Source: Eledone cirrhosa (Eukaryota). Taken from it: a stretch of 64,000 bases of DNA. Location: NCBI GenBank assembly GCA_964016885.1, contig OZ024740.1, positions 54,808,001 to 54,872,000 on the forward strand, written 5' to 3'. The notes under the pieces are model-generated. The model was given only the letters and a program-made list of their open reading frames with translations, was not told where the DNA came from and did no database searches. Made by a program: the position numbers and the translations under genes. Below, in pieces: positions 23,881-58,030 of the stretch (position 1 is its first letter; each line of letters starts with the position of its first letter).

Positions 23881-24078
23881 ATAACGTAGGAGGTGCGGTA
23901 AGGAACCAGATAGACCATAACGCACCAGAGTACTCAATAATTAGGATAGTAGAGTGGGTAATGGGAAAATATTTAACCCCGACGGCAGAGCTCAAGCCGT
24001 TTCGACGGCTATTTCTGAGTCCAGAAATAGCCGTCGAAACGGATTCAGCTCGGCCGTCGGGGTTAAACATTTTCCTAT
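23881..24078 (-). mobile_element. Family B fold-back element (hammerhead 3' half)
   Basis: Tail AGGAACCAG..GAGTACTCAATA..GAGTGGGTAAT plus palindrome CCCCGACGGC..GTTTCGACGGCTATTTCTG / CAGAAATAGCCGTCGAAAC..GCCGTCGGGG; TA-flanked. Confidence 0.8.
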
Positions 24079-24154
24079 ATATATATTTTTATATATACAC
24101 ACACACACACATATATATACATATACATGTACGTATGGGTTATATCGAACATTA

Positions 24155-24290
24155 ATAATTGTTTCTACTTTTGGTACTTTATTTTATCGACTCCGTAAGG
24201 ATGAAAGGTAAAGTTAACCTTGACGGGATTTGAACTCACACCATAAAGGGACGTAACTATGCTGGAAGGCATGTTGTCTGGCCCTCTACG
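24155..24290 (-). mobile_element. tRNA-derived SINE fragment
   Basis: TTTTATCGACTCCGTAAGGATGAAAGG..GATTTGAACTC. Confidence 0.7.
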
Positions 24291-24887
24291 TTTGTAAACA
24301 AACAGCCCGATCCGAAGTTGGGCAGTGCCGTTAACTGATCCTCACCCATTTGTTCATCACTTGCTTTGAGGAACAATCAGCATGTTACTGGGTCATTACC
24401 CTTCATCAGGCCGGCCGAAGATTTTGGGGGTTGTTTACAGGGTGTTTAAAATGATTTTCACCGCTCAATTACAATATCGCCCAATTAGTGTACTTAGCCA
24501 AAAATAACTAAACCATTATCGATCACATATATGAAACTAGTAGAATAATATTATATTAGGTATGATCGAAGTTGTAGCTGCCATATTAAATGAATATATA
24601 TATACATATAGCGGCGATGAATTAGTTTTGCGAGGTTTTTTATATGAAATCGTGTGTCGAAACAGATATTGTTATATTTGGGGAGGGTCATATTTGCGTA
24701 ATATTGCCAGAATTAATAACAGAACACACTAACTGTTTGGTTGGTTTTCGCTTCTCGCTGTCTTTTATATCTGCGATCTAACTTACTCGGTCCTCAATGT
24801 TGCCATTGACTGACCGACGGTCAAAAATAATACAGATACAATATAGACACAAACACATATATATAGTTTACATAATTTACATAAATC

Positions 24888-24915
24888 TTTCGTTGCACAT
24901 CTGCAACATCGTCAG
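24888..24915 (-). ncRNA. Hammerhead-like core in family A pLTR (stems I/III unclear)
   Basis: CTGACGA T GTTGCA-gatg-TGCAAC GAAA on the ORF strand; also at 27564-27591(-), 135-162(+), 34491-34518(-). Confidence 0.5.
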
Positions 24916-25202
24916 TGGTGTTATATTCATTGTTCCTCCTGTTGTGTTGTTTTGTATGTCTACGCCATTTTTTGTTCAGTCTGTCTATATATTTATTTAT
25001 TTATTTGCTTGTTTGTGTTATCTTATTTTATTTTGTCTTCTTTGCGCATGCGTTTGCGTGTGTGTATAGTGTTATGTGTGATGTGTGACTAGTGTGTATA
25101 GTGTTGTGTCTGCTGGGTGACTAGTGTGTGTTTATGTGCTTGTTGTTATTGTGCTTGTGTATGTATTTATTTATCTTAATTTATCTAGTTTTATTTACTT
25201 AT

Positions 25203-26351
25203 TTATACTTCTCTTAGGTCAGTGTTGTTTGTTTGGGTGTTGTTGTTGTTCCACTCATTCTTTCTGTTTAGCTTTGGTCTTCTAATTTCTATTTCACTGG
25301 CCTCTCTGATTTGCCTATCTGCTGGGTCATTCCTATGTTTAGATATTATTCTAATTTCTATGTTGTCTATGTTACCGTCATGTTGTTGTCTAGCATGTTC
25401 GTATAGTACTGACCCGTTTTTTCGTCCTTTTAGTTCCCCCCAGTGTTGGTCTATCCTTTCACCTATGCTACGAGCTGTCTCACCTATGTATGTTGTTGTC
25501 ATGTTTCTGCAAGTACCCTCTGTACATCTTATGCTATAGACTACGTTTCTAGTTTTACAGTTTATCCGGGGGTTCACCTTACATATGATACATTTCCTAT
25601 TGGTAGAGTGGGTTTTCTTAAAAGGGTAGGTTTTGCTGATCAGGGATTTTATGGTGGTTCCTGGCTTTTCTACCACCTTTATTTTTAAGTGGGTCTTTCT
25701 CAGGGCCTTTCTACACTGGTTAGCTAATTTCCCTCCAGGGGTGGCGTCCACAAACATGACACTCTGATATCTCTGGTTGTCGTGCCATGATGTGGCTTTC
25801 CCTATCTTATGTCTAGCCCTATCTAAGCTATTCCATGATTTGCTCCTGTATAGTGGGCAAATTCCTTTCATGTCCAGTTCTATGAGGGTCTTATACTTTT
25901 CCATGGCTCCTTTGTATACTCTGACTCTGTCTCTTTGGTTGTAGCCAGAGAACTGCATGCGGTTGATGAAGTGTTGGATGTGTCTTTCCATTTCTGTTAG
26001 GTCGCACATGCTGGACACATTCTTCATCACTCGTACCAAATCTGCGATCAGAATATTAAACTTAGCACTACTGGACATTGCTGAGTTTTTGAGTATCAGG
26101 TATTTGGAGGCCATGGGTTTAGCATAGTGTGACTGGAGAATTTGGGCTCTCTCGTCTAAAGTGTTAATCCAGAGTTCTGTGTCTAATACAGGTAGTCTAT
26201 TGTTAGGGTGTTTGGAAGGGAAGTCTATAGTTACAGTTATACTCTGGTGTATGGAATTAGCTATCTGCTGGATGCTTTCCATCGTGCTACGTTCTAAATC
26301 AAACTTGTTAGTGCTCTCTAGTGGGGGTGCTCTTATAACTATATTGATATC
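25203..26351 (-). pseudogene. PLE RT C-terminal part, thumb, Cys linker and GIY-YIG endonuclease (5'-truncated at the second Asp of YVDD)
   Basis: [55 protein letters not shown] motifs in an open frame. Confidence 0.9.
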
Positions 26352-27351
26352 GCAGATATAAAAGACAGCGAGAAGCGAAAACCAACCAAACAGTGTGTGT
26401 GTTCTGTTATTAATTCTGGCAATATTAAGCAAATATGACCCTCCCCAAATATATATACATATACATATATATGTATATATTATATATATATATACATATA
26501 TATATATATATATATTATATATATATATAAATATGTATATATATATTTATATATATATATATATAGATATACATATATATGTGTGTATGTGTATATGTAT
26601 ATATATATATTTATATATATGTATATATAAATATACACAGACATATATATGTATGTATGTATGTATGTATGTATGTATGTATGTATGTATGTATGTATGT
26701 ATGTATATATATAGAGAGAGAGAGATAGATAGATATAACCTGATGTGTACGTCCCTACATAACCACAGATACCATTAGTAAAGCGTTTACTGTATTGTGT
26801 TCAATAAATACATTTGTCTATTGAAAATTTATATTACAATGAATGCTGTGTCACAGCATGTTGTTACATAAATAGTAATCGATTACAATAGACTCGCAGT
26901 CTAATATCTGTACAAACAAAAGAACAATCAGTCTGTAACATTGCCGACACGGATATCGGTTAACACGTGATGATTGCCTAGTTCTCTCTCTGTCTCTTTG
27001 TCAATCTATTAAGGTCTTACTCACTCCTCCCTTTCTCCTCTCGCTCTCCTCTCTCTCTCTTTCTCTCTCTTCGTATATTTATCTATCTAGTTCTCTATCA
27101 ATATCTGTATGGTCGTATATAAGTAATATCCAGTTGCTGTCTGATGTGATGGGACTCTAAGCTTTTCCGTTATTTTTATTCATGTCTTTGTCCTGGGCAC
27201 CCCATTTTGAAATACACACATGATCTCACACACACACACCCGCACCCACACACGCACACACACGCACACACACACACACACACACACACACACACACACA
27301 CACACACACACACACACACACACACACACACACACACATATATATATATAT

Positions 27352-56487: not shown

Positions 56488-56600
56488 TCAAATCCCGCCG
56501 AGGTTGACTTTGCCTTTCATCCTTACGGGGTCGATAAAATAAAGTACCAGTAATGCACTGGTTAATTGCTGGCCTTGTGCCTAATGTAGAAACAATTATT
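56488..56600 (+). mobile_element. 5'-truncated tRNA-derived SINE
   Basis: TTCAAATCCCGCCGAGG..CCTTTCATCCTTACGGGGTCGATAAAATAAAGTACCAG..GTAGAAACAATTATT. Confidence 0.8.
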
Positions 56601-56870
56601 TATTTTGTTTCATATTTCTTCTTCAAAGATAAACGACAATTGGTTACCGTAGTTAACATCTACAGAAATATTAATCATATATATAAATTATACATATATA
56701 TATATATATATATATATATATATATATATATATATATATGTATATATGTATATATTTTATACTTTAATTTTTATTTCTACTTTTTCAATCGTGTTTCCTC
56801 CCCCCCCCCCTTATTTCTAAATGTCTTTCCCCCACACAACCTCGGAATTCTCTTCCTACCCTCTTTTCTC

Positions 56871-56893
56871 CCGATGAAGGGCTTAGGCCCGAA
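56871..56893 (+). ncRNA. Family C-like hammerhead 5' part, disrupted by a C/(CA)n tract
   Basis: CCGATGA A GGGC-ttag-GCCC GAA; downstream tail AAGCGTGAACCTAATA resembles other family C tails. Confidence 0.45.
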
Positions 56894-57204
56894 CCCCCCC
56901 ACACACACACACACACACACACACTCTCAAAAGCGTGAACCTAATAAACTCTTATTTGTACTGCCTCTCTGTTTTTGTTCCCGTCTAAGTTTTAACTATA
57001 TATATATATATATATATATATATATATATATATATATATATATATATATATATATATATATATATATATATATATATATATATACGTATATATATATATA
57101 TATATATATATATATATATATATATATATGTGTATATATATATATGTATATATATATATATATATATATATATATATATATATATATAATATATATATAT
57201 AGTT

Positions 57205-57540
57205 AAAACTATGAGGATGGCTCTGAACATTAATCAGTATACACTGAGGATGAAAAACTCAGAGCTGTATGGGAGCATCCCAAAAGTCAGCTCAAAAGTG
57301 ACACAGAGGAGACTGAGGTTGGCTGGACATGCTCACCGACATCCAGAGTTGATGTTGCACTCAGTGCTCCTTTGGGAGCCCCTACATGGACACACTAGAA
57401 GAGGAAGACCAAGGTTAACATATGTTGATGCCCTAAGGACACTGGTCTGTTGGAGATGCAGGGTATGGCAGCGATAATGAGGGACAGAGACCGCTGGAGA
57501 GAACTCGTCCATGGATCTCGGGAATTTTACCCGCCTTAGA
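57205..57540 (+). mobile_element. RTE/RTEX-like LINE 3' end
   Basis: [60 protein letters not shown]; ends in (TAGA)n. Confidence 0.75.
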
Positions 57541-57672
57541 TAGATAGATATATATGTATGTGTATATATATATATATATATATGTATATATATAAGTATA
57601 TATATATATGTATGTATATATATATATATGTATATATATATATATATATATATATATACGTGTGTGTGTGTG

Positions 57673-58030
57673 TAACGAAGGAATTGTGGTAAGGAACCAG
57701 ATGGACCATAATGCACCAGAGTACTCAATACTTAGGGTATTAGAGTGGGTAATAGGAAAAGGTATGACACCGGCGGCAGAGCCTAAGCCATTTCGATGGC
57801 TATTTCTGGTCTCCAGAAATAGCCGTCGAAATGGCTTGAGCTCTGCCGTCGGGGTCATACTTTTTCCTATATATATATGTATATATATATGTGTATATAT
57901 ATATATATATATATATATATATATATATATAAATATATACATATTTAGGAAAATGCTAAAGACCCCGACGGCAGAGCCCAAGCCGTCGGGGACTTGAACA
58001 TTTTCCTATTACCCACTCTACAACCCTAAT
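57673..58030. mobile_element. Two family B fold-back elements (57673-57869, stem II axis; 57946-58030, stem III axis)
   Basis: Same tail and palindromes as other copies. Confidence 0.8.

Follow-up and report, generated by a model that had tools for sequence, protein, structure and literature searches.

Short head-to-head repeats with a one-sided tail, very probably of Penelope ancestry, in the genome of Eledone cirrhosa

Penelope-like retroelements that carry an endonuclease leave a recognizable signature upon insertion, consisting of an inverted 5'-truncated copy, a one-sided tail of 30-40 bp and a bias for (TA)n targets (PMC8557442), and the palindromes found at their inverted junctions have been interpreted as self-priming (PMC3846280). 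In vitro, two reverse transcription (RT) start sites of the Poseidon element PAc of Anolis bound a tail downstream of the hammerhead, both strands of an AT-rich target are cut and extended, and ribozyme cutting is dispensable (PMC11167929). How Penelope-like elements come by these ends and tails has been presented as an unanswered question (PMC8557442; PMC11167929). Here we analyse family B, a set of short repeats found in a stretch of 64,000 nucleotides of Eledone cirrhosa (contig OZ024740.1 of assembly GCA_964016885.1, positions 54,808,001 to 54,872,000; hereafter the window). Family B shares with the inserts described in PMC3846280 and PMC8557442 the head-to-head arms, the tail at one end, the palindrome at the junction and a microsatellite target without readable duplication, and it recalls PAc in its AT-rich target, in a tail bounded by what would be two RT starts downstream of a hammerhead-like motif and, putatively, in the cutting and extension of both strands and in an insertion that does not depend on ribozyme cutting. 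Unlike the former inserts, it has arms of 25-65 nt, no open reading frame (ORF), a tail of 80 nt and a junction usually placed within a putative hammerhead whose CUGANGA half is lost; the tail of PAc lies inside an ORF (PMC11167929), whereas family B lacks a coding signal and is known here from DNA alone. The layout is therefore most likely a variant of the already published Penelope insertion pattern and not a new kind of element, and we consider Penelope ancestry as such very probable.

The original prediction listed ten copies, named below after their approximate starts, and all of them are present in the window at those places. A 13-mer core of the family gave 13 matches with at most one mismatch, versus none in 100 shuffled sequences. 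On the GAAAC...GTC strand, the parts of a copy follow each other as inverted arm, centre, direct arm and tail. The inverted arm occurs in 10/10 copies, joined head to head to the direct arm, and its outer end is in all ten one and the same internal site, TTCC/TA (TTCA/TA in the piece called 49640; the slash marks the end), situated 80 nt before the end of the tail. In eight of the ten the direct arm continues for 80 nt to TTCGT/TA or a close variant; the tail is thus full in eight copies, broken in one (57946) and split by a TA tract in another (49478, made of a tail piece at 49480-49566 and a tail-less palindrome at 49645-49741), and no copy is two-tailed. The copies and their parts are the following:

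23883..24077, minus strand: copy 23881, with tail and direct arm at 23883-24017 and an inverted tail-less arm at 24018-24077; subtype of its own
39977..40113, minus strand: copy 39975, centred on the self-complementary GAGCTC of loop III; subtype ATACTTT
41512..41706, minus strand: copy 41510, with a 4-nt loop at the centre, in the stem II region; subtype TTACTGG
48329..48537, plus strand: copy 48328, with the longest simple centre, direct arm at 48393-48457 and tail at 48458-48537; subtype CTACTCG; reference for read mapping
48416..48438, plus strand: 3' half resembling a type I hammerhead (GAAAC, four more stem III pairs, a loop with the GAGCTC palindrome, GTC), as a pattern match only
48456..48537, plus strand: one-sided 80-nt tail, from the internal end (TTCC/TA) to the distal end (TTCGT/TA)
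49480..49566, minus strand: tail-only piece of copy 49478, of the same subtype as the neighbouring piece 49645..49741
49645..49741, no strand assigned: tail-less palindrome (49640), with the internal site ending both arms and a C>A change common to both
49827..50064, plus strand: copy 49826, with a complex centre of three pieces; subtype CTACTCG
53804..53909, minus strand: copy 53804, in which the inverted arm is full but the other side consists of just the final 46 nt of the tail; no palindrome
54615..54796, plus strand: copy 54614, apparently the youngest (0/48 arm differences), centred on AATT
57673..57869, minus strand: copy 57673, with a 3-nt loop at the centre, in the stem II region; subtype ATACTTT
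57946..58028, plus strand: copy 57946, centred at stem III, whose tail stops after ~21 nt and is followed by ~47 nt of non-family sequence

The original prediction was borne out in its consensus, with the GUC triplet, and in the four subtypes that it named, and a fifth subtype was added, in copy 23881. The preference for TA tracts also held: under a strict rule, four or more TA units border 14 of the 20 ends, versus 10.5% of random positions, and the six remaining ends lie at TA tracts that are interrupted or offset by 1-3 bases (four ends), at a TG tract (57673) and at a short AT-rich stretch (57946). A TA dinucleotide stands at or beside every family B end.

The fixed outer ends are accompanied by variable centres. 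As had been predicted, the axis differs from copy to copy, with ten different centres in ten copies, and besides these differences the arms and tails have almost no other indels. Counted on copy 48328, 12 of the 20 arm starts fall within 48393-48404. The junction lies at AATT in 54614 and, as judged by eye, at GAGCTC in 39975 and at stem III in 57946; the overlap between arms is of 0-1 base in 48328, 49640 and 53804, and the junctions of 39975, 57673, 57946, 23881 and 41510 were read by eye from the arm alignment. In 5/10 copies (23881, 49640, 53804, 54614 and 57946) the tail-less arm extends further 5' than the tail arm. A single complementary DNA (cDNA) folding back on itself cannot produce such copies, which need either two cDNAs or a later deletion, and fold-back of one cDNA is therefore not supported as the general route.

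Comparison of 19 arms (the direct arm of 53804 has no overlap and was excluded) revealed that the two arms of one copy differ at 30/430 sites (7.0%), arms of different copies of the same subtype at 103/1148 (9.0%) and arms of different subtypes at 1042/6021 (17.3%). The arms of a copy share its subtype, as the original prediction had it, with an own-arm distance of 0.072 versus 0.158 in permutations (p = 1e-5), and a single ancestral palindrome is therefore rejected; the clustering of left arms with left arms that such an ancestor would leave was likewise not found, the inverted arms being 14.3% apart among themselves (306/2143 sites). Subtype changes are present on both arms in five subtypes, and in 5/9 copies there are changes carried by both arms and absent from the other copies of the window, two of them transversions (49640 and 49826) and two C>T at CpG. 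The shared arm subtype and the ten different centres fit the proposal that each palindrome was made independently at insertion. This proposal is nevertheless not established, since later loss of a palindrome's centre would yield the same junctions and since, in the two subtypes with three copies, the arms of a copy do not resemble each other significantly more than they resemble those of sister copies (rank 3 of 36), which leaves independent origins and a few palindromic sources unseparated.

Public reads extended these observations beyond the window. Four of 21 listed runs were compared at 85% likeness with a reference made of one arm plus the tail of copy 48328; 10,922 contigs matched in run X1 and 20,733 of 12,467,656 reads in run X19, figures that are not copy numbers, together with 3 and 2 contigs in runs X4 and X10. 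Family B is probably very abundant. The tail-less end running into (TA)n after 48458 was recovered in 3391 reads of X19 and 69 contigs of X1. At least seven joints between opposite strands were found, linking 48398-48413 to 48435-48497, a sample in which symmetric palindromes are probably under-represented; in some joints, e.g. 48398 to 48466-48469, sequence carried by the tail-less arm is missing from the tail arm. A version that is not mirrored before 48395 appeared in X1 (53 contigs, agreement 0.63) and in X10 (one contig). Its beginning is complementary to the AAATAGCC strand of the arm and, by eye, its first 30 letters can form with the arm a long, interrupted, natural hairpin of the kind expected for stem II, although these 30 letters end before the expected position of CTGANGA and a copy mirrored at a full stem II would look alike. 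Loose ends at 48413, 48446, 48452 and 48514 in X1 and X19 point to a related subfamily, absent from the window, in which the hairpin upstream of GTCGAAAC is shorter and the tail ends differently.

The arm itself contains C-GAAAC, four more stem III pairs, a loop with the GAGCTC palindrome and GTC, and a palindromic helix III is also a trait of animal hammerhead motifs (PMC4209133). The half-motif pattern has 25 hits in the window, nine of which are family B arms, versus a shuffle mean of 4.2 (maximum 10). CTGANGA was found in 0/10 copies on either strand, and Rfam returned no hammerhead match for one arm alone. The reading of the 3' half as part of a hammerhead is supported by analogy with other elements of the window, described below, and by the non-mirrored version in the reads; we infer the parent ribozyme only, because its CUGANGA half is missing from the ten copies and beyond the reach of the reads. 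A coding role was considered for the 60-residue open frame of copy 54614, for which a search of 1.84 billion proteins returned one weak hit to an unrelated repetitive protein; this hit, together with a 2-nt indel between subtypes, led us to reject a coding reading. No ORF linked to family B was found within the window, whose Penelope-like ORF belongs to another family, and short family B patterns had no locus in viral contigs, metagenome contigs or prokaryote genomes, collections unlikely to contain this animal.

Any explanation has to deal with what is established for family B: its layout and TA targets, the distance of 80 nt between two fixed ends, the subtype common to both arms of a copy, the differing centres and the existence, in this species, of a non-mirrored upstream version. 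The one we favour, and regard as reasonably probable, is that each copy took shape at the time of insertion, when the 3' end (a pseudo-long terminal repeat (LTR) plus tail) of a Penelope-like element, or of a non-coding derivative moved by one, was inserted head to head and truncated at 5'. The Penelope endonuclease would nick the two strands of a (TA)n target, and RT would be primed by one nicked strand at the distal start site, i.e. the end of the tail, and by the other at the internal site 80 nt upstream. Both cDNAs would stall in or near the long hammerhead stem II and would be joined via self-complementary stretches of the RNA (stem II, stem III, GAGCTC or AATT) or by near-blunt joining. 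As both cDNAs would be antisense, they could pair only through the self-complementary parts of the RNA, where several of the centres lie. Each palindrome would arise anew at insertion, and every copy would be ribozyme-dead, since the mirror arm takes the place of the CUGANGA half.

A number of observations fit this explanation poorly. The tail measures 80 nt versus the 30-40 reported for Penelope-like insertions, and target-site duplications are unreadable because the ends sit inside TA tracts. The parent of family B was not found, neither CTGANGA nor a stem I partner being reached within the 30 upstream letters of the reads; the isolated arm folds as GCCGT-CGAA-ACGGC instead of stem III, and GCCGTC occurs twice and would compete with the hammerhead fold. 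Slippage deletion of a longer palindrome would make use of the very repeats seen at the junctions (GCCGT, GAGCTC and AATT), the junction of 23881 mirrors that of 41510, as might be the case if the centre had been inherited and flipped, and the two C>T changes at CpG seen on both arms may have arisen twice. The non-significant rank within subtypes adds to these difficulties, and it equally suits a rather unlikely alternative in which the palindrome was inherited, i.e. a few palindromic sources, one per subtype, were re-inserted whole by Penelope RT and their centres were later eroded by deletion, flipping or arm-to-arm conversion. Copies 48328 and 49826 have indeed a similar long centre, 23881 and 49640 share the junction letters GGACTC, and the tail-less 49640 could result from priming at the internal site with read-through. 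Erosion of this sort has, however, to reconcile ten centres in ten copies with arms and tails nearly devoid of other indels, and it has to accommodate both the non-mirrored upstream version and the read joints at 48452, 48466, 48467 and 48469, where the tail arm starts at most ~10 nt from the internal site, as two primings predict.

The original prediction had labelled family B as retrozyme-like. It does share with the animal non-LTR retrozymes (PMC7229834; 10.64898/2026.07.22.740005) its short non-coding nature, a type I hammerhead-like motif with palindromic loop III and a probable Penelope ancestry; the GAAAC-stem III-GTC half resembles animal type I motifs (PMC4209133), and the argument that animal retrozymes stem from Penelope pseudo-LTRs (10.64898/2026.07.22.740005) would make a tandem parent possible. 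A true retrozyme, whose copies would stem from RNA circles or multimers processed by an active type I hammerhead, is nonetheless improbable to us. In contrast to the described non-LTR retrozymes (PMC7229834; 10.64898/2026.07.22.740005), the units are inverted instead of head-to-tail (0/10 tandem), no copy has CTGANGA or a complete hammerhead, and none starts or ends at the GUC site; among the loose ends listed in the reads, none runs on into another unit after the tail. The retrozyme label was consequently dropped. Long inverted arms, ends that are all at or next to TA and high abundance could also be expected from a fold-back miniature inverted-repeat transposable element (MITE) of a Tc1/mariner-like DNA transposon with TA target and long terminal inverted repeats. 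We give this origin very little credit: the repeat is not terminal, as in 8/10 copies the 80-nt tail lies outside it on one side and the true ends do not match, copy 53804 has no palindrome, and subtype changes occur on both arms in five subtypes; the fixed terminal inverted repeats named in the original prediction as a sign of DNA transposons were looked for in the window copies and no DNA-transposon ends were found. Extensions are also present at the inverted ends of DIRS elements. An origin from a DIRS-like element, or from another one whose inverted ends are unequal, is disfavoured because family B lacks an internal region between the arms, and palindromes created by assembly error are disfavoured because the arms are 7% different and opposite-strand joints occur in independent reads; together these two sources seem barely credible.

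As a very abundant family of short stubs with two fixed starts, strict polarity and variable junctions, family B could serve to separate two-strand priming, fold-back and inheritance as sources of Penelope inverted ends; stubs of this sort are easily mistaken for MITEs or microRNA hairpins. Other palindromes of the window are of interest in this context. Outside microsatellites there are 12 close palindromes, seven of them family B, and four of the other five have a hammerhead motif on or beside their arms:

476-612 (element 431-775): palindrome with its axis just upstream of a half motif of GAAAC, palindromic loop and GTT; no CTGANGA; unrelated sequence with the design of family B
61431-61698 (element 61350-61700): palindrome whose arms each carry the half motif GAAAC-AATT-GTA, with the axis just upstream of GAAAC; the centre is imperfect and looks natural, and ~80 nt extend past one arm
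1594-2675 (extending to 2745): palindrome with 543-nt arms between TA tracts, a full type I hammerhead with long interrupted stem II, and ~65 nt past the right arm
16422-16490: palindrome with the full motif on one side

The hammerhead of the 1594-2675 palindrome is intact in the left arm and mutated in the right one; its 1863-1939 segment matched Rfam Hammerhead_1 weakly (16.1 bits for a cut-off of 34, E 0.49). Rfam returned hairpin models only for 16400-16510 and, in the whole window, among the matches listed (150 of 414), nearly all were of microRNA type on TA tracts or hairpins and none reached the gathering score. The 61431 element appears to be a third family mirrored in a putative stem II, beside family B and 476. 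It is tempting to speculate that in this genome Penelope hammerheads provide, with their long stem II, a built-in splint for the joining of cDNAs primed on opposite target strands, family B being perhaps a self-propagating, MITE-like mini element of Penelope origin that requires no more than the hairpin and the 80-nt tail, a proposal that we hold to be unlikely. The splint, if real, would explain why three unrelated families of the window (B, 476 and 61431) are mirrored in stem II without CUGANGA, and the mini-element reading would imply that insertion makes use of the fold of the RNA and not of ribozyme cutting. The left end of element 431-775 lies in a TA tract and ~110 nt separate its right arm from the next one. 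Short elements at 16422-16500, this one with an inverted 5' piece, and at 54896-54960 carry a CTGATGAT...TGAAAC motif similar to the Hydra-clade hammerheads in the supplement of PMC8557442, and end ~25 nt later in a TA tract. An inverted pair ~1 kb apart (8769-8871 and 9896-9998) carries a hammerhead-like motif, and a palindrome at 33162-33284, with one end in a TA tract, lacks it.

The window also contains a Penelope-like element, family A, with the layout of family B:

24627-29500, minus strand: family A, a Penelope-like element in 5'-truncated, partly tandem form, whose repeats lie at 1-369, 26355-26448, 27361-27713, 34237-34716 and ~43620

Its ORF, at 27835-29481 and 25203-26546 on the minus strand, has RT and GIY-YIG-like features; Pfam gave no family for it, Atlas gave a family match, and the search for relatives returned 13 unnamed ones. 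The terminal repeat has a hammerhead-like core by eye, for which Rfam gave no hammerhead match, and a ~40-nt tail common to two copies. At 34237-34716 a TA tract, an inverted tail-less arm, a direct arm and a tail follow one another as in family B. No sequence similarity between both families was found in the window, and family A is thus an analogy for family B and not its parent. The ~47 nt of non-family sequence that end copy 57946 (58029-58077) have a 15-mer in common with the family A ORF at 29091, possibly by chance or through a template jump.

Among described lineages, the Hydra and Naiad clades (including Hydra-1_Obim, Naiad_Obim and Naiad_Ovul) share the (TA)n preference with family B, and the Hydra clade has in addition a hammerhead near the 3' end with a helix III of 3-4 bp (PMC8557442). 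In the supplement of PMC8557442, neither the hammerhead row given for Hydra-1_Obim nor the 3' end of either of these Naiads is similar to family B. Nothing relevant was matched there by four short words taken from family B, nor by short words in the supplement of PMC13282606, which has no repeat library; line breaks in sequence files can hide matches. Junctions in stem II with loss of CUGANGA and the 80-nt tail were not found in the literature searched, outside which stood most subscription papers, Repbase and Dfam; repeat libraries may already contain family B. In the same supplement of PMC8557442, the 3' ends of Naiad_Obim and Naiad_Ovul have GAAAC upstream of CTGATGA with, by eye, possible helices I and III in scrambled order, and Naiad_Ovul is marked as a half core by its authors.

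Several other repeats were noticed in the window. Inverted pairs 96-100% alike flank TA tracts with small insertions (9552-9820/10192-10460, 43468-43570/43877-43979, 54151-54370/55372-55591 and 41298-41326/41427-41455) in DNA that otherwise looks single-copy, and the 54151 pair surrounds copy 54614. A dispersed or short-tandem family of ~230 nt occurs at 7870-8070, 12230-12377, 18647-19296, 21756-22486, 24172-24289, 36396-36642, 40697-40888, 56487-56604 and 60811-60916, and apparently resembles the cephalopod tRNA-derived short interspersed element. Together with the microsatellites, this family would point to an octopus as the host. Finally, positions 19900-21500 are occupied by a long, degenerate, GGT-rich trinucleotide tract.

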